64,000 bases of DNA from NCBI GenBank assembly GCA_041666325.1, contig JBAYHC010000002.1:51635-115634 (forward strand), written 5' to 3'. Below are positions 15 through 54,712 of this stretch, in pieces. The stretch's first letter is position 1. Each line of letters begins with the position of its first letter. The notes beneath the pieces were generated by a model, which did not search any database, was not told where the DNA came from, and worked only from the letters and a program-made list of their open reading frames with translations. This DNA comes from Patescibacteria group bacterium (GTDB lineage: Bacteria; Patescibacteriota; UBA1384; XYA2-FULL-43-10; 1-14-0-10-43-13). The translations under genes were made by a program, and so were the position numbers.

Positions 15-1115
15 ATGAAATTTGCAATTGATGTTAGAGAAGTGGGCGAAATGAGGGCAGGCAAGGGCTATTACGTTTTTGAGTTAGTAAACCATCTGGC
101 ACAGATCGACCATGAGAATGAGTATGTCCTTTATACCAACAAATCTTTTTTGTGGCAGTTGCCAAAGAACTTCTCATTAAAAGTAGTCTTGGGCAGATCA
201 ATCATGTGGCACAAGCGGCTCGCCAGCCAAATGGAAAAAGATTCAATTAATGCGTTTCTGTCAACATTGAGTTATTTGAGTGCACTTTTTTCGAGTGTGC
301 CAACCGTTTTGGTGGTCCATGACTTGGCGGTTTTTTATGCCCCAATCAAGAGCAAGCGAAAATCCGTGATCGCCGAAAAGCTCACGCTTAATCGTGCAGC
401 CAAGAGGGCAGAAAGAATAATTGCCGTATCAGAAACGACAAAATCAGAGCTAAATCGCTTCAATCCTTCTTTCGGCGACAAAACAGTGGTGGCACCAAAT
501 GCGGTTTCCGATCGTTTTTGCGTTGCATCGAGGGAAGAGGTAAGCAGTTTTATCCGCTCCCGCGGGTTGCCCGATAAATACATTCTCTTTGTCGGTACGC
601 TAGAACCAAGAAAGGGCATATCCGCACTAATAGGTGCCTACGCACAGCTGGATCAGGAGATACAGGAGGAATATCGATTGATTATTGCCGGCAAGAAGGG
701 ATGGTATTACGAGGAGATATTTGACTTAGTCGGTAAGTTGGGGTTAAAAGAGAGGGTTGGCTTCCCGGGATATATTGCGGAAGATGATTTGCCCCTGCTT
801 TATAATGGTGCATCTCTTTTTGTCTTTCCTAGTGTCTATGAAGGTTTCGGCTTGCCTGTGTTGGAGGCGATGAAGTGTGGCACACCAACCATCACGAGTG
901 ATGCTCCTGCTTTGGTGGAGGTGGGTGATGGGGCAGCGCTGTCTGTGCATGTTGGAGATGTCTCTGGTCTGGCAACCCAGATGCAGAAGGTGCTGACGGA
1001 TAGCGTGTTGTCGCGCTTGATGGTTGAAAAGGGTCTAGAAATTGTGAAAAAATACGACTGGAAAAAGAGCGCAAAGATAACGCTGGATACCTTGATTAGA
1101 GCAGTAAAGCAGTAA
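15..1115 (+). CDS. Glycosyltransferase family 1 (GT4-like)
   Basis: 366-aa ORF; C-terminal GT1 signature ...FVFPSVYEGFGLPVLEAMKCGTPTITSD; first gene of glycan locus. Confidence 0.85.
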   Translation: MKFAIDVREVGEMRAGKGYYVFELVNHLAQIDHENEYVLYTNKSFLWQLPKNFSLKVVLGRSIMWHKRLASQMEKDSINAFLSTLSYLSALFSSVPTVLVVHDLAVFYAPIKSKRKSVIAEKLTLNRAAKRAERIIAVSETTKSELNRFNPSFGDKTVVAPNAVSDRFCVASREEVSSFIRSRGLPDKYILFVGTLEPRKGISALIGAYAQLDQEIQEEYRLIIAGKKGWYYEEIFDLVGKLGLKERVGFPGYIAEDDLPLLYNGASLFVFPSVYEGFGLPVLEAMKCGTPTITSDAPALVEVGDGAALSVHVGDVSGLATQMQKVLTDSVLSRLMVEKGLEIVKKYDWKKSAKITLDTLIRAVKQ

Positions 1116-1250
1116 GGCAGTAGAGCGGTGAGGTGGGTAGGGCAAAGCACTACCTTACAACACTATTGTCTTGTCACTTCATTTCTCTGCTACCTTACAT
1201 CCTTATTGCCTTACAACTCTATTACATTATATTAACGACATAGGAGAGTT

Positions 1251-2501
1251 ATGGAATCGTTGGCATATATACTTCTTTACTTAGTGCCATTTGAGAGAAT
1301 CCCATCAATTGAGATTTTCGGGCTAACGGCAAGATTGAGTACATTTGCAATCTTGGTGTTTGTCTTAATCTTCCTGCCTGGTTTTTTGTACAAGAAAAAA
1401 TATTTACCAATATCATCCATTGATAAATCTATTATTGCATTTCTTCTGATTACTTATTCGTCCATCTTGGTGGCGGAAGATAAAAAGCGGGCGCTGATCG
1501 TTGCTGCTCTCCTAACATTTGTTATCTGTGGCTACTTATTAGTAACCCGTGTGCTGCGCGTAAAATTTAACTTTGAAAAAGTATCCAAGGTGATTATCTG
1601 GTCTGCGTTAGCGACTGCCTTATTTGGCTTTTTCCAGTTCTTTGGCGATAGCCGTTTCGGCTTGCCGGCCAATGTGACGGGACTCATTCCCAGATACACA
1701 AAAGAGATATTGGGTTTTGCCAGAGTCCAATCAGTCGGCATGGAGCCTCTTTACTATGCTAACTTTTTGTTCCTTCCGATTTTTATTCTGTCCAGCCGAA
1801 TCTTGACTGCAGCCAAGAAGCCAGCTGTCTTTGACCTTGTCTCGCTCACAATAGTTTTGTCTGCCTTTATTTTGTCCTTGTCTCGTGGGGCTTATGCTGG
1901 TTTCGCTGCTGGTATTGTTACTCTGATTGCTTTGTTGGTCATCTTTTCTCATCTGAGAAAGCATGCTTGGAAACTGGTAATTGTTGGTTTGGTCGCCTGG
2001 GGGTTGTCTCAGATGGCCGTGCTGGATGTTTCTGGTGGTCAGGGTGTGACAGATTTTACGGAACAGGTGACTGTGCCAGAGAAAACAGCCGGAGCGTCGA
2101 CTAATCCCAGACTAGAGTCATACCGTGAAGCCATCCGGTTGTTCAGAGAAAATCCGATTTTGGGCGTGGGAATCGGCAACTACGGTGTTGTTTCTAAATT
2201 TGAGAAGAATATTGCCGAGGCCGGGTATATTATTGTAAATAACCAATACCTAGAAACTTTAGCAGAAACCGGGATTGTCGGTTTTGTCTCCTTTGCCGTA
2301 CTAATTTTTCTTCTTATCGTCAAGCTGTTTCGCGCCTTGAGGCTCAACAAGGCAAATGCGCCATCCATTGCTCTGACGTTGACCCTCGTCTCGGTTTTGA
2401 CTCAATATAACTTTTTCTCAACTATTTATATTCTATATATTTGGATAGTGGTGGCTCTTATAGAATCGATGCCGATAGCAACAGGGGAAGGGGACAAGTG
2501 A
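1251..2501 (+). CDS. O-antigen ligase / Wzy_C family polytopic membrane protein
   Basis: 416 aa, ~10 predicted TM helices, Wzy_C-like loop motif LSLSRGAYAGFAAG; RBS taggagag upstream of ATG. Confidence 0.6.
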   Translation: MESLAYILLYLVPFERIPSIEIFGLTARLSTFAILVFVLIFLPGFLYKKKYLPISSIDKSIIAFLLITYSSILVAEDKKRALIVAALLTFVICGYLLVTRVLRVKFNFEKVSKVIIWSALATALFGFFQFFGDSRFGLPANVTGLIPRYTKEILGFARVQSVGMEPLYYANFLFLPIFILSSRILTAAKKPAVFDLVSLTIVLSAFILSLSRGAYAGFAAGIVTLIALLVIFSHLRKHAWKLVIVGLVAWGLSQMAVLDVSGGQGVTDFTEQVTVPEKTAGASTNPRLESYREAIRLFRENPILGVGIGNYGVVSKFEKNIAEAGYIIVNNQYLETLAETGIVGFVSFAVLIFLLIVKLFRALRLNKANAPSIALTLTLVSVLTQYNFFSTIYILYIWIVVALIESMPIATGEGDK

Positions 2502-4030
2502 AGCAAGATAAGCTCGGGAAGAAATTTGTCGTCCCGGTGATTATGCTTGCGCTCTTTTTCTTGGCCCTAAATATTCTCTGGTCTTACCTGGACAAGACTC
2601 CACCGCATTGGGATATGGCCAGGCATCTATCCAATAGTCTTGACTATCATCGGTATTTGATCGATCTTAATTGGCGCAAGCTGATCTTTAATTACTCATA
2701 TTACCCACCCTTTTATTATTGGCTGACTGCCCTGTGGTATTTGGTTGTTGGCAGGTCGATTGATGCTGCAATTTCAACAAATCTGTTCTTTGTTGTAGCA
2801 CTTGCGATCAGTGTTTATTTCAGTGCGAAGAAATTACAAGACGAAAGATCTGCTTGCTTGGCCGCTCTTCTTGCGTTAACCTTTCCGATGCTGTCGAGCC
2901 AATTTAAAGAGTTTCAGCTGGATGCACCGCTGACAGTGATGGTTTCTCTTGGCCTAACGTTTCTCTTGTATAGCGATAATTTTCGCAATAGAAAATCGAT
3001 TGTCTTTCTGGGTATCGTCTCTGGCCTGGCCATGCTTACGAAGTGGACCTACGCTGCTTATGTGCTTGTGCCATTGATTTATCTATTGGCAGAATCATTA
3101 CTTAAATTTCCCAGAGAGAGAATTAGCATTCTGAAAAATGCTCTTATCGCCGCGATTGCTACATCGATTATCGCCGGACCCTGGTACACGCATAATCTGT
3201 CCGACATCAAGCGAGATGTTGACGGAAGCGGTATAAATGCTGCTCTGGCCGAGGGCGATCCGGTCGGCTTGACGTTGAAAGCATTCATGTTTTATTTTTG
3301 GACGTTCATTGAGCATCATTTTTGGCTTATCGGCACTATAATTTTCTTGGTTGGGTTGGTGGTCCTGCTCAGCAATCGCGAATCACGCCGCAAGTATGCG
3401 ATATATCTGATCTCCGTCATTGTCGGTTATATCATCTTTTCGACTTTTCCCAACAAAGATGCCAGATTTATCATGCCGATCGTTCCCTCTGTGGCCATAA
3501 TCATTATCGGTTTCATGTCCCTGTTACCAAAGACTCCAAGAGCATTCCTGGCAGTCTATTTGATTATCTTTGCTTTTTTCACCTTCTTTGAAACCACCTT
3601 CAGCTTGCCATTCACTAAAAGCATCTCATGGCAAACGGAGGGTAAGCACTGGATCAATGTTTATCTGGAGAGGAGCTACACCGTTACGGCGCCAAGCCAA
3701 CTTGATTGGCATTATGACGTAATTGTTTCCAGAGCTAGATCTGACGCAGGCGAGGACAGAACTATTCAGTTTCTGGGACAAGACCGCTCTGAGTTTAATC
3801 GATGGGCTTTGGCATATTACAGCAGGCTTTATGGTATGGAGTGGGTTGGCGAAAATACATCTAGCGTCAATTTCCGCTATCTCGTATTTCGTGAAGCCGG
3901 GGAAAGCTATGCCCAAAAAGAAGAGGAATTGTTTCGAGAGGGGTTTTCCCCTGATGTCATGGGCCAGTGGATTCTTCCAGATGGAACGAGCGCCTACCTG
4001 ATAAAGATAGAAGGGGAGCAAGATGTTTAA
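2441..4030 (+). CDS. GT-C fold glycosyltransferase, PMT_2/ArnT-like (family 39/83-like) membrane protein
   Basis: 529-aa polytopic membrane protein; N-terminal region PPHWDMARHLSNSLDY resembles PMT/ArnT family; likely real start GTG at ~2498 after RBS aggggaagggga (ORF frame opens at 2441). Confidence 0.5.
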   Translation: MDSGGSYRIDADSNRGRGQVKQDKLGKKFVVPVIMLALFFLALNILWSYLDKTPPHWDMARHLSNSLDYHRYLIDLNWRKLIFNYSYYPPFYYWLTALWYLVVGRSIDAAISTNLFFVVALAISVYFSAKKLQDERSACLAALLALTFPMLSSQFKEFQLDAPLTVMVSLGLTFLLYSDNFRNRKSIVFLGIVSGLAMLTKWTYAAYVLVPLIYLLAESLLKFPRERISILKNALIAAIATSIIAGPWYTHNLSDIKRDVDGSGINAALAEGDPVGLTLKAFMFYFWTFIEHHFWLIGTIIFLVGLVVLLSNRESRRKYAIYLISVIVGYIIFSTFPNKDARFIMPIVPSVAIIIIGFMSLLPKTPRAFLAVYLIIFAFFTFFETTFSLPFTKSISWQTEGKHWINVYLERSYTVTAPSQLDWHYDVIVSRARSDAGEDRTIQFLGQDRSEFNRWALAYYSRLYGMEWVGENTSSVNFRYLVFREAGESYAQKEEELFREGFSPDVMGQWILPDGTSAYLIKIEGEQDV

Positions 4031-5219
4031 GCTGGTTATGATTATTCTTATTGCTACTGTTTTTCTTGTGCCTTTTTATTTCTTTCGCTTTGATCTTCTG
4101 GGGGTGCCGACGAATATTTTTGAGGTAGCGATTTTCGCTGCCATCCTGGCGGCGATAGTTGATCTTGTCGCAAAGAAAAGACGTGTAAATTGGGGTGGGA
4201 TCTGGCCATACTTGCTTCTGGTTTCGGTTCTTGTTGGAGCAATAATCTCTGAGGACAAGACCAGAGCCGCTGGTATCGCAAAGGGTTGGTTTATTGCTCC
4301 AATCTTGCTTTATTGGTTAATGATTAACTTTGGCAACAAAAGCTCTATCCGCAAAATCGTCCTCGCGCAATTCTTCGCTATGATTGTGATTGCGCTGTGG
4401 GCAATCTTGCAGCGGTTCGAGGTGGTCGGTTTACTCTTCTACCAAAAGGGCGACCCGTCATTCTTGCAATATCTGGGAGATACGCCTCGGTCGTTCGGAC
4501 CATTTGAATCACCGAATTATCTTGCGATGTATTTGGTGCCAACTATCTTCATATCATTGTCGACACTGACTTTTATCAGGCCTATTGGCCAAAGGTTAAT
4601 TCTGGCTTCCGGACTAATTATAGCTATTATCGCCCTTCTGCTGTCGGGCTCACGGGGTGGTGTGATTGCTCTAGCACTGGCGTTATTGGTGCTCCTTGTA
4701 ATAATTATCGGCCGACGCCTAGGCAAGCAGGCGTCACTATTGATTGCCGCACTGATCGCAGCATTGTCGTTGTTCTCAATCTGGAAGATCGCGCCGGCGC
4801 AGGATCAAGCCAGGATTGAGATCTATGCTTATTCAGTTGAGATGATCCAATCGCACCCTTTTGCAGGTATTGGTCTTGGTAGCTTTAGAGATGAAATTAC
4901 CAAACTTTCTGTGGGTAATCCGACATTTATTGAGCATGGTCTACCATTCGCTCTGCACCCCCACAATCTTTACTTGGCAATATGGCTGAATCTGGGTTTG
5001 TCCGGATTGCTTGTTTTTGGCTTGCTATTGTGGGGGTTTTTAAGAAAAGCCAGATCGGACAATGGTGGAGTAGGGCTGTTTGCGCTTTTGGCAATGGTTG
5101 CGATTTTAGCACACGGTTTGGTTGATACAACTTATTTTAAGAATGATCTTGCTGCCCTATTTTGGTTGATTTATGCAATCCCGTATCTCCCAAGTGAGAA
5201 TGATGAAAACAAGTTTTAA
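4023..5219 (+). CDS. O-antigen ligase / Wzy_C family membrane protein (paralog 2)
   Basis: 398 aa, multi-TM, motif LSGSRGGVIALALALLVLL typical of Wzy_C loop region; 4-bp overlap with upstream gene. Confidence 0.6.
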   Translation: MFKLVMIILIATVFLVPFYFFRFDLLGVPTNIFEVAIFAAILAAIVDLVAKKRRVNWGGIWPYLLLVSVLVGAIISEDKTRAAGIAKGWFIAPILLYWLMINFGNKSSIRKIVLAQFFAMIVIALWAILQRFEVVGLLFYQKGDPSFLQYLGDTPRSFGPFESPNYLAMYLVPTIFISLSTLTFIRPIGQRLILASGLIIAIIALLLSGSRGGVIALALALLVLLVIIIGRRLGKQASLLIAALIAALSLFSIWKIAPAQDQARIEIYAYSVEMIQSHPFAGIGLGSFRDEITKLSVGNPTFIEHGLPFALHPHNLYLAIWLNLGLSGLLVFGLLLWGFLRKARSDNGGVGLFALLAMVAILAHGLVDTTYFKNDLAALFWLIYAIPYLPSENDENKF

Positions 5220-6495
5220 GAAAACAATATATCATTTTCTGTTAGCAGTTATTGTTTTTATTCCTTTTCAGTCTCTTGCGGTTGCGATTCTAGGGAACAT
5301 TAGTAATCTGCCTGCTGCGGAAGTATTTTGGCTTGCTCACTGGTATGAGCCCGTTTCACTTCTATTGCTACCGGCAATAATTTTGAGCAGAATTGTGAAG
5401 GGAAATATCAGCCGAGATCGTCTTTGGTTGATGGCTATCGGGTTGATTGCCTTTGGCTTCGTAACAATAATTACCGGAGATTTGCCAGTCGGCAGAATGC
5501 TTGAGGGATTCAGGTTTACTTTGTTCCCGATTTTGATCTTTCTGCTGGCTTCTTCGCGTGTCTTTCGGTCGTGGGAAAAGAGAACTTTTGTGACAACATA
5601 TTTGGTCTTGGCATTACTGATTGCCATCCTAGCTGTTGTTGAGCGTTTTTTGCCGCCACATTATCTTGAATTTCTGGGTATATTGCCGCAAGGTTCACTT
5701 TTTGGTTTTGGTAATTTTACAATCGTCGAGGTCTATCAAAGTTCCTCGCTTATTGGTGCCCCTAATCAACTTGCTACGTATCTTCTGCCCGCACTTTTTT
5801 TGTTCTTGATAAAAGCGAAGCGAGGAGAGATGAGTAGACTTTGTGCTGTTCCTGCCAGCACAATCATTGCTTTGGCAATTTTATTTACATTTTCTCGATC
5901 GGCGTTAATTGGAGCTGTCTTTGCCTTATTGGTGTCGGCAATGCTTTATTTTAGAGACAGATATTGGAGTATGACCATCGCATCCTCTTTGCCGTTTTTT
6001 GTTCTGATTCCGTACTTGGTATATATTAGATCCGGAGGCATGTGGTGGGATCTTTTCACCCACGGAGCATCTCAGACACAGCATGCTGGTGCCTTGGAGC
6101 AAAGTTTGACCGAGTTAGGGTCAAGACTTAGCCAGCCAGGAACGTTGTTTTTTGGTTCGGGCTTAGGGTCGGCCGGCCCGCTTGTGTTGAAATATGGCGA
6201 TGGCCTTGTCTCTGAGAGTTGGTATCTTCAGCTGTTCCTTGAGCTTGGTTTGATTGGATTTATGCTTTGGTTTTTTCTAATCATTGCCATGTGCAAGCGA
6301 TTGATCGATGGCTCTGGTGACTCAGAGAAGCCAATGCTGGCCTTGGGTTTGATTGCCGTTTTAGTTGCTGCCCTCTTTCTTCATACGTTGTCTGACAATC
6401 CGGCAGTTAGCATTACGTTATTTATTTTGATCGGGGTGTATGCGACCGAAGATGCCCAGATCGCTAGAGCTGCGCAATCTGGGGCAAGAGAATGA
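5173..6495 (+). CDS. O-antigen ligase / Wzy_C family membrane protein (paralog 3)
   Basis: 440 aa multi-TM; motif FSRSALIGAVFALLVS; probable start at MMKTSF (~5200). Confidence 0.55.
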   Translation: MQSRISQVRMMKTSFKKTIYHFLLAVIVFIPFQSLAVAILGNISNLPAAEVFWLAHWYEPVSLLLLPAIILSRIVKGNISRDRLWLMAIGLIAFGFVTIITGDLPVGRMLEGFRFTLFPILIFLLASSRVFRSWEKRTFVTTYLVLALLIAILAVVERFLPPHYLEFLGILPQGSLFGFGNFTIVEVYQSSSLIGAPNQLATYLLPALFLFLIKAKRGEMSRLCAVPASTIIALAILFTFSRSALIGAVFALLVSAMLYFRDRYWSMTIASSLPFFVLIPYLVYIRSGGMWWDLFTHGASQTQHAGALEQSLTELGSRLSQPGTLFFGSGLGSAGPLVLKYGDGLVSESWYLQLFLELGLIGFMLWFFLIIAMCKRLIDGSGDSEKPMLALGLIAVLVAALFLHTLSDNPAVSITLFILIGVYATEDAQIARAAQSGARE

Positions 6496-6543
6496 GCGTA
6501 ACGTGTGATATTTATGATTGATTTTTTAGGACAGGATTATACT

Positions 6544-7770
6544 ATGAGCAAAATCTTAATTGATGGCAGATTTGTGGGTGTTGGCGAATCAATGACTCGC
6601 TATACTCTGGAAATCCTGCGGGGTGTTTTGGAGCTGGACAAAGAGAATGAGTACACATTGCTCGTTCGGCCGCAGGGATTAGGGGCAATCAATGAATTTT
6701 TTGGTGAATCGGAAATCAAAAGACACGAATCAGGGAGTGACCCTTTTCGAGCCGAGATTAAAGATTCAAGCTTTATGATTCAAGTACTCGACATACCTCA
6801 TTATTCCTTGCCTGAGCAAACAAAGTTGCTGCAATACTTAAATAAAAGCAAGTATGACCTGGTCCACTTTATCCAGTTCAATCACCCTGTCCGCTACAAG
6901 GCGCCCTATGTTGTGACCGTGCACGATTTGACCATGGTGGGCTACTTGCACAGATCGAATCCGCTTAAGCGTTTAGCCTTTGGCAGAGTGATGAAATCTG
7001 CCGTCAGGGATTCAAGGCGGATAATTACCGTTTCTAATACATCTCGTGATGAAATCGTTGAGTATTATCGGATTGACAAGGACAAGATTGATACTGTTTA
7101 CAATGGCATTAATCATGAGCGCTACAATGCCCTGATTGAGGATAAAGAGCTGAAAACTAAACAATTTAGGAAGAAGTACGAGATTGATGGTGATTACTTG
7201 CTCTACACTGGGATGTGGAAAAAGCACAAGAACTTGCTCAGGCTTTTGAAAGCCTTCGAGCAAGTAAAATCCAAAATCCAAAATCCAAAATCCAAAAATA
7301 TAGAAGGCTTGCAACTAGTATTGGTGGGGAAGAAGGACGAGAGCGAGCCAGAGGTGCTTGCTGAAATTAAAAGAATCAACAACCTAAAATCGAAAATCAA
7401 AGATCGAAAATCTATTGTAACGACTGGCTATATCAAAGAAGAAGAGTTGCCGGTGGCCTATGCCGGGGCATTGGCATATGCTATTCCCTCACTCTCTGAG
7501 GGGTTTGGTCTGCCGCCGCTCGAAGCCATGGCTTGTGGTGCGCCTGTTATTTCATCGAATGTTTCCTGTATGCCGGAGGTCTTGGGTGACGCACCGCTTT
7601 ATTTTGATCCTTATGATGTCGATGATATTGCTGGTGCGATAGAACAAACAGTAGAAAGTCGGGAACTAAGGAACGACTTGATTAAGAAGGGGCTGGTCCA
7701 GGCCAAAAAGTACTCATGGGATAAGGCGGCGAGAGAGACGTGGGAAGTGTATAAAAAGTTGCTAGGATAA
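6544..7770 (+). CDS. Glycosyltransferase family 1 (GT4-like) with internal low-complexity K/S-rich linker
   Basis: GT1 signature [23 protein letters not shown]; start taken at MSKILIDG (ORF frame opens 6505); contains heptanucleotide repeat 7266-7293. Confidence 0.85.
7266..7299. repeat. Perfect tandem heptanucleotide repeat (AAAATCC)x4 plus partial copy, inside GT4 CDS
   Basis: Direct reading: aaaatcc aaaatcc aaaatcc aaaatcc aaaaata; encodes [10 protein letters not shown]; second degenerate repeat aaaatcgaaaatcaaagatcgaaaatc at ~7384-7420. Confidence 0.9.
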
Positions 7771-7873: not shown

Positions 7874-7913
7874 AAAAAAGACCGGCGGCACCCCAAGAAG
7901 GGGGCGCCACCGG
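7874..7913 (-). terminator. Rho-independent terminator of high-GC lipoprotein gene
   Basis: minus strand: CCGGTGGCGCCCC-cttctt-GGGGTGCCGCCGG followed by TCTTTTTTATTT; immediately downstream of stop at 7939. Confidence 0.7.
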
Positions 7914-7938
7914 CGTGTGTAATCGAACGTGCCAGGAT

Positions 7939-8889
7939 CTACCTGGCGGTGTGAACCTGCATCGGCAGGTGCGGCGGGTCCGCGCTGGCGTTTACCGGCT
8001 GGACCTGCAGCCCGCGTGCGCGGGTGATGACCCGCACCTGGCGGCGGAAGTGGTCATCGGTCCCGACCGTGCCCCACCACAGGTAGACGCCATTGGAGGC
8101 GAACTTCCAGCGGCGGGGCTGGTCCGTGCCTGTCACGGGCGTGGGCTGGGGCAGCGTGCCGCCGACGGGGGTAAAGGCGTACTGGACGCCCTCGGTTACC
8201 TCCGCGTTGGCGGCATCGTAGACCTTGGGCAGGATCTCCTGACCGTTGCCGGCGAGACACTGGTCGCCGAAGAGCGAGAGCTCGTCCGGCGTGGTGTCCT
8301 CCGGATCGTAGCTCCAGAGCTTGAGCAGGTGGGGGCTGACCCGCACCTTGCACGTCAGCTCGAACCTGGCGAAGCGCAGCCCCGAGGCTTCGGTCGGCTT
8401 CACGCCGACGATCAGGTCGTACGTGCCCGCCGCCGGCTTGTAGATGCCCGGGGCGGCCGGTGTGACAACTGTCGTGCCCGAGCTTGTGACCAGCCGGTAA
8501 TCCAAGATGAACTTGTCACTTGGCTGCCCACCGGCAGTTATGTCCTCGATCCAGCTTGCCAGCCACTCGTCTTTGCAGGCCCAGCGGTTGGTGGCGTTGG
8601 CACCCTCGAGCTCGACCCACTTGCCATTGGGGTCGGCGTTGGAGCTGCCGACCCAGAACGGCACTGTCAGCCGATAGATGCGCGTCTCCGGCTCGAGCCG
8701 GAATGAGTTGGCGTTCCGGTCGATGACCGGAGTCACGGTCGTGCCACCCGGCGGGGGCGGGTTGGTGCCGCCACCGGATGACGAACCGTTCCCGTTGGTG
8801 TTGGAGTTGTCGAGGACCGTTCCGCCTCCGCCCCCACAACCGCCAACACCGATACCAGCACACAACACTACCAGCAAAAGGTACCTCAT
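7939..8889 (-). CDS. High-GC (~67%) secreted lipoprotein, unknown function (foreign-composition islet 1)
   Basis: 316 aa; N-terminus MRYLLLVVLCAGIGVGGCGGG = signal peptide with Cys lipobox and Gly/Ser/Pro-rich linker; GC far above flanks; RBS gaaaggaaggga before ATG. Confidence 0.6.
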   Translation of the reverse strand: MRYLLLVVLCAGIGVGGCGGGGGTVLDNSNTNGNGSSSGGGTNPPPPGGTTVTPVIDRNANSFRLEPETRIYRLTVPFWVGSSNADPNGKWVELEGANATNRWACKDEWLASWIEDITAGGQPSDKFILDYRLVTSSGTTVVTPAAPGIYKPAAGTYDLIVGVKPTEASGLRFARFELTCKVRVSPHLLKLWSYDPEDTTPDELSLFGDQCLAGNGQEILPKVYDAANAEVTEGVQYAFTPVGGTLPQPTPVTGTDQPRRWKFASNGVYLWWGTVGTDDHFRRQVRVITRARGLQVQPVNASADPPHLPMQVHTAR

Positions 8890-9051
8890 GATGTGTCCCT
8901 TCCTTTCGTTACGTTTGGATGCTCCTGAACGGGCGGTGAAGTATGTGCTTTTTGCGAATTCCGGCGCCGGTGGAAGCCTCGAGAGGCAGGGCTGGCGTGG
9001 GCGGCTGAAGCAAAAAGGACATACGAGCCAGTGTAAGTAACGTAACTAGCT

Positions 9052-22923: not shown

Positions 22924-23063
22924 AGAAACCCCTGGTTTCTAGTTCATAAAGTACTGAGTTCATAAAGTGACGGAGCCGCCTTTGCCTCTAAGATTCATCG
23001 ATCTGAACAAAGCTGTGTATCACTTTATAAACCTTATGAACTTTATAAACTTTAAAAACTAAA

Positions 23064-44609: not shown

Positions 44610-44677
44610 AATGAGCGCTATGTCTGTAGGCACAGCTCTTAATTCATAACTCTTAATTCATTCAGGATGAGGGGAAT

Positions 44678-46144
44678 ATGACTGTCGTGACCAAGGGTGT
44701 TAGTGCTGAAGCGGTAAGCACTAAGGGGAAGCTCTTCACTATCTCGGAATTTCGCCACGAACTGGGCATTCCGCTGGTTTTGGCTAGAAAGCTTTTGGTT
44801 TGGGGTTTGGTTGAGGGTTATCTTGCCGTTGACGGCACAATTCGAATTACTGAAGAAGAGTTAGCGAAGGCCAGGGAGATATTAAAGAACCCATGGCGCA
44901 AACTGGCTCTGTTTGTAAAGTCGCTTGGTCCTGGGTTAGTGACTGGCGCTTCAGATGATGACCCGGGTGGAATCGGCACGTACTCTTCTGTTGGTGCGGC
45001 CTATGGATTTTCTCTTTTGTGGATGGCTGTCTATTTGTTGCCATTGATGCTGGCAGTTCAGGAGAGCTGTGCTCGTATCGGAATCGTTACCAACCGGGGT
45101 TTGGCTGGTGTGTTGCAGCGCCACTATCGGCGTAACGTGGTAGCAATGGCGGTTATTCTTCTCATTGTCGCCAACGTTGTTAACATTGGCGCCGATCTTG
45201 GCGCTATGGCTGCATCGTTAAAACTGATCTTAAATGTTGACTATGCTCTTGCTGCAGTCATTTTTACAATTATCATAGCGGCTATTGTTATTGCTGTGCC
45301 GTACCATATTTATGCCAAGCTACTTAAGTGGCTAACTCTCTCTGTTTTTGCTTATGTTATAACCGGCATTATTATTCATCCTGACTGGATCACGATCTTG
45401 AGGGAGGCGTTCATTCCACGGGTTACTTTTGAGAAGGAATATCTCTTTGCTATGATTGCCGTATTTGGCACAACGATAACGCCATATCTTTTCTTTTGGC
45501 AAACCTCGGAGGAAGTAGAGGAGGGCAAGATTGAAGTGAAAGAATCAAAGAAACTATCGCTCCATCATCGCATTGGCCGCATGCGAACTGATGTGCGAAC
45601 AGGGATGGCGTTGGCAAATTTGGTTTTCTTTTTTATAATTCTCAGCACGGCGAGTGTGCTCAATGCGAATGGTGTCACCAGCATTAACTCAGCTGAACAA
45701 GCGGCTGAAGCATTGCGGCCATTTGCTGGCGATTACGCATTTTTGCTCTTTGCTTTTGGAATAATTGGTACGGGATTGTTGGCGGTGCCCATATTGGCTG
45801 GGTCGGGTGCCTATGCTCTTTCTGAGGTGATGAAGTGGCGAGAGGGTTTGGAGTACAAATTCTCGCAAGCCAAAGGTTTTTATCTGATTATTGCTTTTTC
45901 GCTTGTTGTTGGACTGTCGCTTAACTTTGTCGGTATCAATCCCATTACCGCTCTTTATTATTCTGCTTTTCTAAATGGTATTATTGCCCTACCACTGCTT
46001 GTTGCTATAATGATCGTTGGCGATGATGAAAGAATCATGGGCAGAGAGACCCATCCTGGGTGGGTTAAGCTCTTTGGTTGGTTGGCTGTTGCTTTCATGG
46101 CGGTAGCAGTAGTTTTGGCCTTGTGGCTTAATTTTGTTAAGTAA
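44678..46144 (+). CDS. mntH: Nramp-family divalent metal transporter with ~60-aa N-terminal HTH-like extension
   Basis: LGPGLVTGASDDDPGGIGTYSSVGAAYGFSLLW = Nramp DPGN motif region; 11 TM; N-terminal FTISEFRHELGIPLVLARKLLVWGLVEGYLAVDGTIRITEEEL resembles excisionase/MerR-type HTH. Confidence 0.85.
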   Translation: MTVVTKGVSAEAVSTKGKLFTISEFRHELGIPLVLARKLLVWGLVEGYLAVDGTIRITEEELAKAREILKNPWRKLALFVKSLGPGLVTGASDDDPGGIGTYSSVGAAYGFSLLWMAVYLLPLMLAVQESCARIGIVTNRGLAGVLQRHYRRNVVAMAVILLIVANVVNIGADLGAMAASLKLILNVDYALAAVIFTIIIAAIVIAVPYHIYAKLLKWLTLSVFAYVITGIIIHPDWITILREAFIPRVTFEKEYLFAMIAVFGTTITPYLFFWQTSEEVEEGKIEVKESKKLSLHHRIGRMRTDVRTGMALANLVFFFIILSTASVLNANGVTSINSAEQAAEALRPFAGDYAFLLFAFGIIGTGLLAVPILAGSGAYALSEVMKWREGLEYKFSQAKGFYLIIAFSLVVGLSLNFVGINPITALYYSAFLNGIIALPLLVAIMIVGDDERIMGRETHPGWVKLFGWLAVAFMAVAVVLALWLNFVK

Positions 46145-46656: not shown

Positions 46657-47364
46657 ATGGATAAGCACGGAATACTGTACATCATTGCAACTCCGATCGG
46701 TAATCTCGAAGATATGACCTTCCGAGCGATTCGGATATTGAAAGAAGTCGATCTAATTGCTTGCGAGGACACTCGTGTTACCAGGACTTTGCTCGATCAT
46801 TATGAGATCAAGACACCGACTGTCTCATACTTCGCTCACTCAAAGTTATCAAAGATAGACTATCTGATCGGACAGCTGGAAGCGGGGAAGTCAATTGCGC
46901 TAGTTTCCGACGCAGGCACGCCGGGAATTTCTGATCCAGGGGAATATCTGATTCGGAGAATCAGGGAAATCCGAAATTCTAAATCCGAAATCCTAAATAT
47001 ATCCCAAACACCAATAGTTCCTATTCCCGGTCCGTCGGCGTTGACGGCGGCGGCATCGGTTAGTGGCATGATTGATAAGGAGTTTTATTTCGCTGGTTTT
47101 CTGCCCAAGAAAAAGGGTCGCCAGACGGAACTAAAAATGTTGTCATCACTCAGCAGTCCCGTCGTAATCTATGAATCAGCTGTTAGGATTGAGCGAACGC
47201 TTCGCGATATTGAGGCGTATTTTGGCGACAAGACACAGGTTTTCATTGCACGGGAGATAACTAAGATGTTCGAGGAGTATTGGGGCGGCAACATTAAAGT
47301 TGTTATCACCGATCTTTCAATCCACAAGCTAAAGGGTGAGATTGTACTGATTGTTAAGAAATAA
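46657..47364 (+). CDS. rsmI: 16S rRNA (cytidine1402-2'-O)-methyltransferase
   Basis: MDKHGILYIIATPIGNLEDMTFRAIRILKEVDLIACEDTRVTRTLL classic RsmI N-terminus; contains 14-nt x2 repeat insertion. Confidence 0.88.
   Translation: MDKHGILYIIATPIGNLEDMTFRAIRILKEVDLIACEDTRVTRTLLDHYEIKTPTVSYFAHSKLSKIDYLIGQLEAGKSIALVSDAGTPGISDPGEYLIRRIREIRNSKSEILNISQTPIVPIPGPSALTAAASVSGMIDKEFYFAGFLPKKKGRQTELKMLSSLSSPVVIYESAVRIERTLRDIEAYFGDKTQVFIAREITKMFEEYWGGNIKVVITDLSIHKLKGEIVLIVKK
46967..46994. repeat. Tandem 14-nt repeat AAATCCGAAATYCT x2 inside rsmI
   Basis: aaatccgaaattct aaatccgaaatcct then aaat; encodes ...IRNSKSEILN... Confidence 0.8.
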
Positions 47365-51307: not shown

Positions 51308-52108
51308 GTGAAGAGAACATTGTGCGGATTGATGCTTGGTTTCGCTCTGGTGGCGCAGGGGTGCGGTGGCGGGAGCAACAGCCCCGTGGTACCTGCCGCG
51401 ACCGAAGGACGCTTCTTGGTCGCCTTCGAGCAGTACGACGCGCAGATCAGCGACCACGTCACCCCGGTGATTGAGAGCGGTGTCGAGTTCCGTATCGACA
51501 TCGCCGGCCTGTCATCGCCGCGGTCACGGGGAGGGATCGATCCCTCATCTGCCACCTATCGCTGGCTCAAGGATGGCCGGCCGTTCGATCCGGGCATTGT
51601 CGTGACGGCGGGTCAGGAGCGGCGTGGTTGGATGATCGGAATCCCCAACCGGCACGAGGACTTTGGTGACACGGCCTTCCAGGTCGTGGCCGAGATCACC
51701 GACCAGGGGCAGACCTTCATCGCCCGCCGGACCTTCTTCGTCCGGCCCTGGTCCACGGTCAAACCGGCAGCACCGATTCTGCAGACGGATGCCTTCTCGG
51801 GTGACCCGGCCAGGTCGCGCTATTACAACGAGGTCGGGGGCTATTACGTCGGCATTCTGGACGCGAGGATCGACATCCTCAACGGCGGTGGCGCCGAGGG
51901 CGCGCGCGAGGCCAAGGGGCGTGGCCCCGGCGGATCGTACTGGGAGGTATCCACCAATGGCACTCGCTTGCCGCTTACACCAAGCAGGCCGGGCTGGTGG
52001 ACGGTGTCGCTGGTGAGCCCCGGGGGTTACGTTTCCCGGCCGGCTTGGCTCTGGGTCTACGACCCGGCCAACCCGGGGGCAACCCCGCCCGCCCGCCCGG
52101 ATTGGTAG
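51308..52108 (+). CDS. High-GC (~66%) secreted lipoprotein, unknown function (foreign-composition islet 2)
   Basis: GTG start after RBS GAAGGAGG (8-nt spacer); VKRTLCGLMLGFALVAQGCGGGSNS signal peptide with Cys lipobox; alternative GTG at 51290. Confidence 0.6.
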   Translation: MKRTLCGLMLGFALVAQGCGGGSNSPVVPAATEGRFLVAFEQYDAQISDHVTPVIESGVEFRIDIAGLSSPRSRGGIDPSSATYRWLKDGRPFDPGIVVTAGQERRGWMIGIPNRHEDFGDTAFQVVAEITDQGQTFIARRTFFVRPWSTVKPAAPILQTDAFSGDPARSRYYNEVGGYYVGILDARIDILNGGGAEGAREAKGRGPGGSYWEVSTNGTRLPLTPSRPGWWTVSLVSPGGYVSRPAWLWVYDPANPGATPPARPDW

Positions 52109-54595: not shown

Positions 54596-54712
54596 CTAGC
54601 AGTTCGTGAAGTTCTTAAAGTTTATAAAGTTTGTAAAGAAATAGCTTCAATAGCGTTTTCTTCCTGCGAACTTTATGAACCTTATGAACTTGTAACTTTA
54701 TAAACTTATTTC

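Follow-up and report, generated by a model that had tools for sequence, protein, structure and literature searches.

The Neisseria gene pglE encodes a galactosyltransferase of pilin/protein glycosylation and is phase-varied by a heptanucleotide repeat within its ORF (PMC7157529). The SSR loci of H. influenzae include tetranucleotide tracts in the LOS genes lic2A and lgtC and heptanucleotide tracts at hmw1A and hmw2A, and (AATTTTG)14 lies within an hmw1A ORF (PMC2651432). Surveys of such loci have set the threshold for heptamers at three units or more (PMC2651432, PMC5084427), and one review regards pentamers with at least three copies as hypermutable (PMC4235727). The CPR/Patescibacteria are uncultured, reduced-genome episymbionts. 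In a limited literature search, no paper linking CPR with phase variation was found.

Herein, a heptanucleotide tract in a glycosyltransferase gene of an uncultured, groundwater-type Patescibacteria group bacterium, represented by a MAG, was analyzed and compared with these systems. The window refers to the whole stretch of DNA that was analyzed, 64 kb in length. An earlier note had proposed the tract as a possible phase-variation switch, analogous to the repeat loci in glycosyltransferase genes of Haemophilus and Neisseria. The features are listed in Table 1, and GT4 below refers to the gene that carries the tract.

Table 1 Features of the window around the heptanucleotide tract and the related arrays.
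Feature	Position	Strand	Evidence or context
First GT4	15-1115	+	Upstream surface-glycan cluster (15..6495)
O-antigen-ligase/Wzy_C-like membrane proteins, three	1251-2501, 4023-5219, 5173-6495	+	Surface-glycan cluster
PMT_2 glycosyltransferase	2441-4030	+	Surface-glycan cluster
GT4 (GT-B fold) glycosyltransferase, predicted, 408 aa from ATG at 6544	6544-7770	+	ORF, Pfam, AlphaFold model
Perfect heptanucleotide array (AAAATCC)x4 + AAAA	7266-7297	+	TRF, sequence inspection, shuffles
Degenerate heptamer array AAAATCG AAAATCA AAGATCG AAAATC	7386-7412	+	TRF period 7, 3.9 copies, 80% matches
Degenerate heptamer array AAATCCG AAATTCT AAATCCG AAATCCT AAAT	46967-46998	+	In frame in RsmI-like methyltransferase ORF 46657-47364

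The perfect array was detected by TRF with the unit AAAATCC, a period of 7, 4.6 copies and 100% matches. The letters from 7260 to 7299 read gcaagt, four AAAATCC units, AAAA and at. The earlier note had counted 28 + 6 nt; the four perfect units stand, and the partial copy was slightly overstated, as it has four matching bases. The 32 nt of the tract form a direct repeat, and inverted-repeat arms are absent. When the 64-kb window was scanned for perfect arrays with a unit of at least 5 nt and at least 2.5 copies, this tract was the only one found, and none of 100 dinucleotide-preserving shuffles gave such an array. Chance or composition is thereby ruled out. Similarly, the mismatch-tolerant self-shift score of the tract, 25, was the top score of the window, and the next score was 14, at 46967. 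The only other assembly of the window species was identical over 7227 nt, repeat included. The AAAATCC repeat is real and non-random.

The tract lies in frame within the GT4 ORF, with a non-triplet unit inside coding sequence, and it encodes residues V241-N252. Because 7 and 3 have no common factor, the array encodes an identical cyclic heptapeptide, KSKIQNP, in all three frames, and stop codons are present in none of them. Programmed ribosomal frameshifting on the A-rich heptamer was rejected, since by inspection no X_XXY_YYZ site lies in register. The second degenerate repeat, which had been described 90 nt downstream, was recovered 89 nt from the first array. It encodes KSKIKDRKS in the a2-b3 loop (residues 281-290) and is read as an older, decayed array. 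The third array encodes IRNSKSEILNI. Its core resembles the GT4 unit, and an AAATC core is common to all three window arrays. This third array lies in a gene for an RsmI-like 16S rRNA methyltransferase, where it looks like a loop insertion relative to E. coli RsmI. It shows that heptamer arrays settle in a housekeeping gene too.

The GT4 ORF is likewise open from an upstream GTG at 6505. Pfam matched Glyco_transf_4 (PF13439, E=1.2e-17) at residues 82-193 and Glycos_transf_1 (PF00534, E=1.1e-29) at residues 207-383, which confirms the earlier placement of the repeat in frame within a GT4 gene. The E-x7-E motif was located at E319-E327 (EGFGLPPLE) in the C-terminal domain; among 30 homologs, E319 is invariant and E327 is nearly invariant (90% or more). 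The motif region can be aligned to the PDB GT4 enzymes 7qsg and 6kih. With both domains and the motif present, the protein is predicted to belong to the GT4 (GT-B fold) retaining glycosyltransferases. It lacks a signal peptide and is a GT-B enzyme of the cytoplasm. A protein entered as 'MAG: glycosyltransferase family 1 protein [Patescibacteria group bacterium]' is identical, and identity falls to only 63% for the next relative.

The AlphaFold (AF2) model, built from a sequence alignment, contains two Rossmann-like domains, with a mean pLDDT of 85.9 and a pTM of 0.86. In the model, V241-N252 fall in the C-terminal Rossmann domain, where they form the end of helix a1 (229-245) and part of the a1-b2 loop (246-256). 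The repeat had been assigned to the inter-domain linker; the model places that linker at about residues 185-217, and this location was not upheld. Everything from strand b2 onward, E-x7-E included, is encoded downstream of the repeat. In the array-bearing loops pLDDT is lowered, and these loops are at the surface of the fold. The protein alignment contains hypervariable segments, and the two GT4 arrays of the window sit in two of them. Loops rich in K, S, Q and N are found across the homologs.

The unit number of the array was edited in silico and the products were predicted. With four units, as observed, the product has 408 aa, and in-frame products also result from one unit (401 aa) and seven units (415 aa). 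Three units give a truncated product of 250 aa and five units one of 275 aa, both without E319-x7-E327. This bears out the earlier argument that the 7-nt unit is non-triplet and that a one-unit change loses the C-terminal catalytic half. A slip by one unit in either direction would truncate GT4 and is predicted to leave a catalytically dead enzyme.

From its neighborhood, GT4 is assigned to a putative surface-glycan cluster, because another GT4, three Wzy_C/O-antigen-ligase-like proteins and a PMT_2 glycosyltransferase lie upstream. The upstream cluster genes contain no heptamer arrays. In the 62.7 kb of the window outside GT4, no period-7 excess was found, with 1 run compared with 0.8 expected. 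This indicates that the enrichment belongs to the gene and not to the whole genome. A genome-wide heptamer bias was rejected on this count, as the bias is not uniform. Directly 3' of GT4 there is a GC-rich island at 7900-9000 (GC 0.57 vs ~0.45), possibly horizontally acquired. The product of a minus-strand ORF at 7939-8889 (316 aa), which opens with the lipoprotein-like signal MRYLLLVVLCAGIGVGGCGGGG, gave no Pfam match; in the ENA assembly, a 263-aa ORF is called on the opposite strand of this region.

Other repeats were noted in the window. Intergenic arrays of a 9-mer, AGTTTATAA or its reverse complement TTATAAACT, occur at 23022-23060, 54601-54638 and 54668-54707, and the two arrays at 54.6 kb lie about 30 nt from each other in inverted orientation. 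In other species, arrays of this 9-mer occur just 3' of GT4 (L031 2250-2291 and L043 2623-2651). They represent a conserved non-coding repeat with no Rfam match. A direct 14-nt repeat, CTCTTAATTCATAA x1.9, is intergenic at 44636-44661, just upstream of an ORF starting at 44678, and could be a regulatory element and not an array of heptamers. Within a locally GC-rich stretch, positions 52084-52099 hold a perfect tetranucleotide array, (CCCG)x4.

Ortholog DNA was collected from GTDB species representatives (24 loci) and JGI metagenomes (39 loci), most of them from Berkelbacteria-like Patescibacteria; the genome of the window itself was not among the results of these scans. In the GTDB set, the GT4 genes (28 kb) contained 28 arrays, 19 with period 7 and 7 with period 14, and none with period 6, 9 or 12; shuffles gave about zero. 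The flanks (62.6 kb) contained only 3 period-7 arrays and 1 period-14 array. Similarly, 28 and 9 of the 43 gene arrays in the JGI set have periods 7 and 14, compared with 6 and 4 of the 20 flank arrays. Among the arrays of the flanks, about half are intergenic, and the rest are found in tails or loops of the neighboring Wzy-like protein. Deduplication left 58 orthologs (68 kb) with 61 short tandem arrays, of which 55 have a period of 7 or 14. These 55 are distributed over L2 (the a1-b2 loop, 18), L3 (the a2-b3 loop, 15), the linker (12) and L1 (an N-domain loop, 9), with 1 left unassigned. In the same 58 orthologs, the copy number reaches at most 5.0 with a median of 3.9, and arrays are absent from 29. 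The array density is ~0.8 per kb in the GT4 gene and ~0.1-0.16 per kb in the flanks. Units that are multiples of a triplet are nearly absent, with one array of period 6 and none of period 9 or 12.

Across dozens of independent assemblies, the ortholog arrays are always in frame. Different species carry unrelated units (AATTCAA, AAGTCAA, CGAAATA, AGTATCA, AGGATTC, CGGTCAA, CCCAAGA, TCAGGAC and others), and the encoded peptides differ as well (GQRSTVN, DSGFRIQ, EIRNTKY, SGLRTQD and others). The unit distance was 2.59 mismatches within a genome and 2.74 between genomes, a difference that was not significant (permutation p = 0.09). The GT4 family is a lineage-wide hot spot for heptamer arrays.

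The origin of an array was captured in one pair of orthologs with 89% identity. L046 contains an in-frame 51-nt insert in L3, composed of (TCAGGAC)x4 and (CCCAAGA)x4.7, which is absent from L022. Arrays arise de novo, because the insert of L046 has no counterpart in L022. Protein clusters at 90% identity were then screened for population-level length alleles. In a Berkelbacteria population, the L2 loop was found in two lengths: P0142 and P0193 have 390 aa, and P0196, P0197 and P0203 have 397 aa, with KVKSQKS as the difference. P0193 was present in ~100 sample blocks (assemblies). At the DNA level, the long allele reads AAAAGTT+(AAAAGTC)x4 and the short allele (AAAAGTC)x2, a difference of exactly three units, 21 nt or 7 aa. 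The two alleles otherwise differ at ~10 of 2394 nt. This is a three-unit in-frame polymorphism at the a1-b2 loop of the Berkelbacteria ortholog. When L070 and L072 were compared, 6 of the ~10 substitutions fell within the 30 nt upstream of the polymorphic array; this clustering suggests a small recombination patch.

The N-terminal halves of L005 and L032 are 99% identical, and the two diverge abruptly across L2-L3. Very fast in-situ loop turnover was considered for this pair and rejected; the conserved flanking codons have also diverged, and a recombination mosaic is likelier. These comparisons suggest that GT4 alleles are mosaics with recombination patches centered on the variable loops. GC-rich palindromic mini-inserts were found in frame in the GT4 loops of several orthologs: L069 at 691-711 (P0131) compared with L066, L1 of L019, and L3 of L009. 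They include the 21-nt CCTGCCCGTCCGGCAGGCGGG and, at the peptide level, 'VIPAEAGIQ' and 'CHPERAERVEGS'. Such in-frame inserts show the tolerance of the loops. Three other length differences were examined as candidate repeat polymorphisms and rejected. Between P0097 and P0131, the difference of 7 aa corresponds to a genuine 21-nt indel in L1, but the indel consists of a GC-rich palindrome instead of three heptamers. The 7-aa difference between P0022 and P0122 is due to the start codon only. In cluster P0169, which has 43 members, the lengths of 396-405 aa vary through start codons and divergent C-terminal tails and not through the loops.

OFF alleles were searched for among the natural sequences. 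All 53 complete orthologs have single intact ORFs of 378-452 aa; the count of out-of-frame orthologs is thus 0 of 53, in consensus assemblies that hide minority variants. The partial tblastn matches all stop at contig ends. A query of the N-terminal 235 residues was used so that truncated and full-length products rank alike. Among the 120 best N-domain protein matches, no product of ~240-300 aa was present, and only the window protein itself exceeded 63% identity. Ten variant products were then predicted for the Berkelbacteria population on both allele backgrounds, seven OFF and three in frame, and two of the latter were array lengths swapped between the backgrounds. None of the ten was found in a collection of 15 billion proteins. 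This indicates that the two Berkelbacteria alleles behave as stable haplotypes, and each is linked to its own flanking SNPs. ON and OFF alleles, whose coexistence marks a contingency locus, were not found together among the available natural alleles.

Several short or broken products were inspected as candidate OFF alleles. P0129 (267 aa, on a 174-kb contig) is cut by the contig end, and P0226, P0194 and P0224 look like contig-end fragments, judging from where their sequences stop. The frameshifted products P0229, P0135 and P0139 lose the frame in or just before the catalytic segment, not at the heptamer arrays; they may result from sequencing errors on short contigs or be pseudogenes. In one MAG, the GT4 gene is split over two contigs exactly at L2 (P0194 and P0195). 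This split may reflect sample heterogeneity and is only suggestive.

We propose that the tract is a slippage-prone mutable hot spot with in-frame loop-length alleles, in which OFF states are rare by-products; we judge this account to be somewhat better than even. The tract would be a young, still perfect microsatellite that arose through strand slippage, and its site would be a permissive surface loop in a conserved GT4 of CPR (Berkelbacteria type). Arrays would be born de novo at four unconstrained surface segments tolerant of nearly any insert (L1, the linker, the a1-b2 loop and the a2-b3 loop), would grow to 3-5 copies, and would then decay by point mutation or be replaced. Frame-keeping states alone would persist in nature, leaving alleles that are three units apart (21 nt, 7 aa). 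The tract would generate reversible null alleles at a low rate and would be a proto-contingency locus, not a demonstrated tuned ON/OFF switch. We infer a slippage mechanism with a low switching rate and no adaptive tuning; from the reading frame, low-rate ON/OFF switching would be mechanistically possible.

Some observations run against this account. Neutral slippage combined with tolerance predicts that units of 3, 6 and 9 nt survive best, yet they are almost absent. Selection on the loop peptide is unlikely because the enzyme is cytoplasmic, and the enrichment in this particular gene is a hint that mutability itself is under selection. A change from two to five units by simple slippage needs out-of-frame intermediates, which implies historical OFF states. 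Since minority OFF cells are hidden in consensus assemblies, the absence of OFF alleles is weak evidence. Given that pentamers are rated hypermutable from three copies upward (PMC4235727), four copies of a heptamer may be quite unstable.

The best surviving rival is a true contingency locus, in which mutability would be selected and one-unit slips would reversibly toggle GT4 and a surface glycan epitope within populations. The benefit would be, for example, phage escape or changed host attachment. The switch would operate like that of the Haemophilus and Neisseria genes for LOS and pilin glycosylation. A non-triplet unit sits within the glycosyltransferase ORF of a surface-glycan cluster, and the loss or gain of one unit gives truncated products without E-x7-E, as this reading expects. 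Gene-specific non-triplet enrichment in dozens of species, together with the turnover of the units, fits selection for repetitiveness and not for a sequence, and triplet-multiple units are nearly absent though better tolerated. On the other hand, half of the orthologs are array-free, the arrays lie mid-gene and not near the 5' end, a similar array occurs in the housekeeping gene RsmI, and selection for frameshifts gives no reason for 7 over 4, 5 or 8. The four units of the tract pass the survey threshold for heptamers (at least three; PMC2651432, PMC5084427), and pglE provides a precedent (PMC7157529), but the arrays have at most 5 copies compared with 13-38 in proven heptamer switches (PMC2651432). 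The copy number does vary at the a1-b2 loop in a related population, and one MAG has the gene split exactly at L2. Against this, no OFF state was found in 53 complete orthologs, no truncated product among the 120 best N-domain matches, and none of the ten predicted variants (seven OFF, three in frame) in the protein collection, with the alleles being stable SNP-linked haplotypes. We regard a true contingency locus as a tentative possibility, well short of even.

A broader form of this reading, which we hold a shade more tentatively still, is that a CPR clade (Berkelbacteria and relatives) keeps a surface-glycan GT4 as a heptanucleotide contingency gene, with tracts continually reborn at four sites of the enzyme in dozens of species. 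If so, this would be the Candidate Phyla Radiation's first reported contingency locus, with reversible ON/OFF and loop-length glycan variation in host-attached organisms under phage pressure. The strict 7-nt unit would then point to an undescribed lineage-specific slippage or repair mechanism. OFF alleles, if found, would extend contingency-locus biology beyond host-adapted pathogens. Even without them, the family shows an odd mutational signature, with period 7 only and three-unit in-frame alleles. For annotation, loop heptamer arrays are a source of length differences between orthologs and possibly of assembly breaks.

The tract could also reflect selection on the peptide, in which the K/S/Q/N-rich KSKIQNP would usefully extend the loop as a flexible or charged stretch, with the DNA repeat as no more than the route to it. 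One cyclic heptapeptide is obtained from all three frames, and K-, S-, Q- and N-rich loops recur across the homologs, but peptides from different species are unrelated and half of the orthologs are free of arrays. The long loop allele has persisted alongside the short one, which speaks for this reading; the perfect DNA periodicity is 7 and not 21, which points to a DNA process, and the product is a cytoplasmic GT-B enzyme with no signal peptide. Peptide selection is considered unlikely.

Slightly less likely again is a genome-specific dispersed repeat or mobile mini-element that inserts in frame and has the three AAATC[CG]N arrays of the window (7266, 7386 and 46967) as its copies; it would be akin to cyanobacterial STRR heptamers or Rickettsia palindromic elements. 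The three window arrays have the AAATC core in common, but avoidance of stop codons in three frames would by itself leave A-rich, TC-containing units, and the within-genome and between-genome unit distances do not differ significantly (2.59 vs 2.74, p = 0.09). Palindromic mini-inserts are present in ortholog loops, and STRR heptamers occur within the functional gene rnpB, going by the title of Vioque 1997 as cited in PMC2858038. The window arrays lack flanking inverted repeats and target duplications, and only 5 matches to a double unit with at most 2 mismatches were found in the 64 kb, 4 of them inside GT4. Chance low-complexity sequence or an assembly artefact, for which only the A-rich regional composition speaks, is hardly credible in view of the shuffles (0 of 100), the identical second assembly, and the like arrays in dozens of independent assemblies, always in frame.

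The preferred account of a mutable hot spot can now be set beside the known systems. The palindromic mini-inserts in GT4 loops are reminiscent of Rickettsia palindromic elements (RPE), being in-frame hairpin elements in a coding gene. The tract itself is not of the RPE type, which is a palindrome of ~100 bp or more in frame; it is a 32-nt direct repeat, and the palindromic inserts of the orthologs are separate objects. The STRR families of cyanobacteria consist of a few fixed units that are dispersed genome-wide and mostly intergenic. What the GT4 arrays share with them is a 7-nt unit in tandem, a preference for heptamers that is specific to a lineage, and, as far as the title of Vioque 1997 cited in PMC2858038 indicates, a place in the variable parts of a functional gene. 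In contrast to STRR, the GT4 units vary by site and are not significantly shared within a genome, and it is in one gene that the arrays are concentrated. A family of the STRR type was rejected from the unit distances (p = 0.09) and from the window outside GT4, which has no period-7 excess.

In its working, the tract appears most like Neisseria pglE and the H. influenzae SSR loci. As in pglE, a heptanucleotide repeat lies in the coding sequence of a predicted surface-glycan glycosyltransferase, and a change of one unit shifts the frame. The pglE ON/OFF phasotypes have been seen directly in carriage isolates, whereas no OFF alleles were seen here; GT4 differs further in having 4 units only, a mid-gene position, and orthologs of which half have no tract. 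With H. influenzae, GT4 shares a lineage-typical SSR unit length, a link to surface-structure genes, non-triplet units, and tract lengths above the survey threshold of at least three 7-mers (PMC2651432). The proven tracts of H. influenzae have 13-38 heptamers, show single-unit polymorphism between strains, and are often OFF in genomes (PMC2651432). In contrast, the GT4 arrays have at most 5 units, and the sole polymorphism found is of three units and in frame. The hmw promoter tracts act on transcription, whereas the GT4 tract is within the ORF.

The analogy with Haemophilus and Neisseria drawn in the earlier note holds for the non-triplet SSR in a glycosyltransferase, and it does not hold for the coexistence of ON and OFF states or for the tract length (at most 5 compared with 13-38 units). 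Its proposal of a phase-variation switch agrees with the frame logic, the heptamer enrichment, the pglE precedent and the copy-number polymorphism in a related species; the OFF alleles that it implies were absent from the 53 orthologs, the 120 matches and the ten predicted variants. The phase-variation reading is mechanistically sound and possible, but it is unproven and unsupported by the available natural alleles. The tract fits best in the proto-mutable/mutable SSR classes of Bayliss and co-workers (PMC4235727), which rest on measured rates for G, CA, TAAA, AGTC and GACGA tracts, with heptamers and CPR outside those, and which likewise comprise short tracts that mutate at a rate between background and hypermutability and may become contingency loci.
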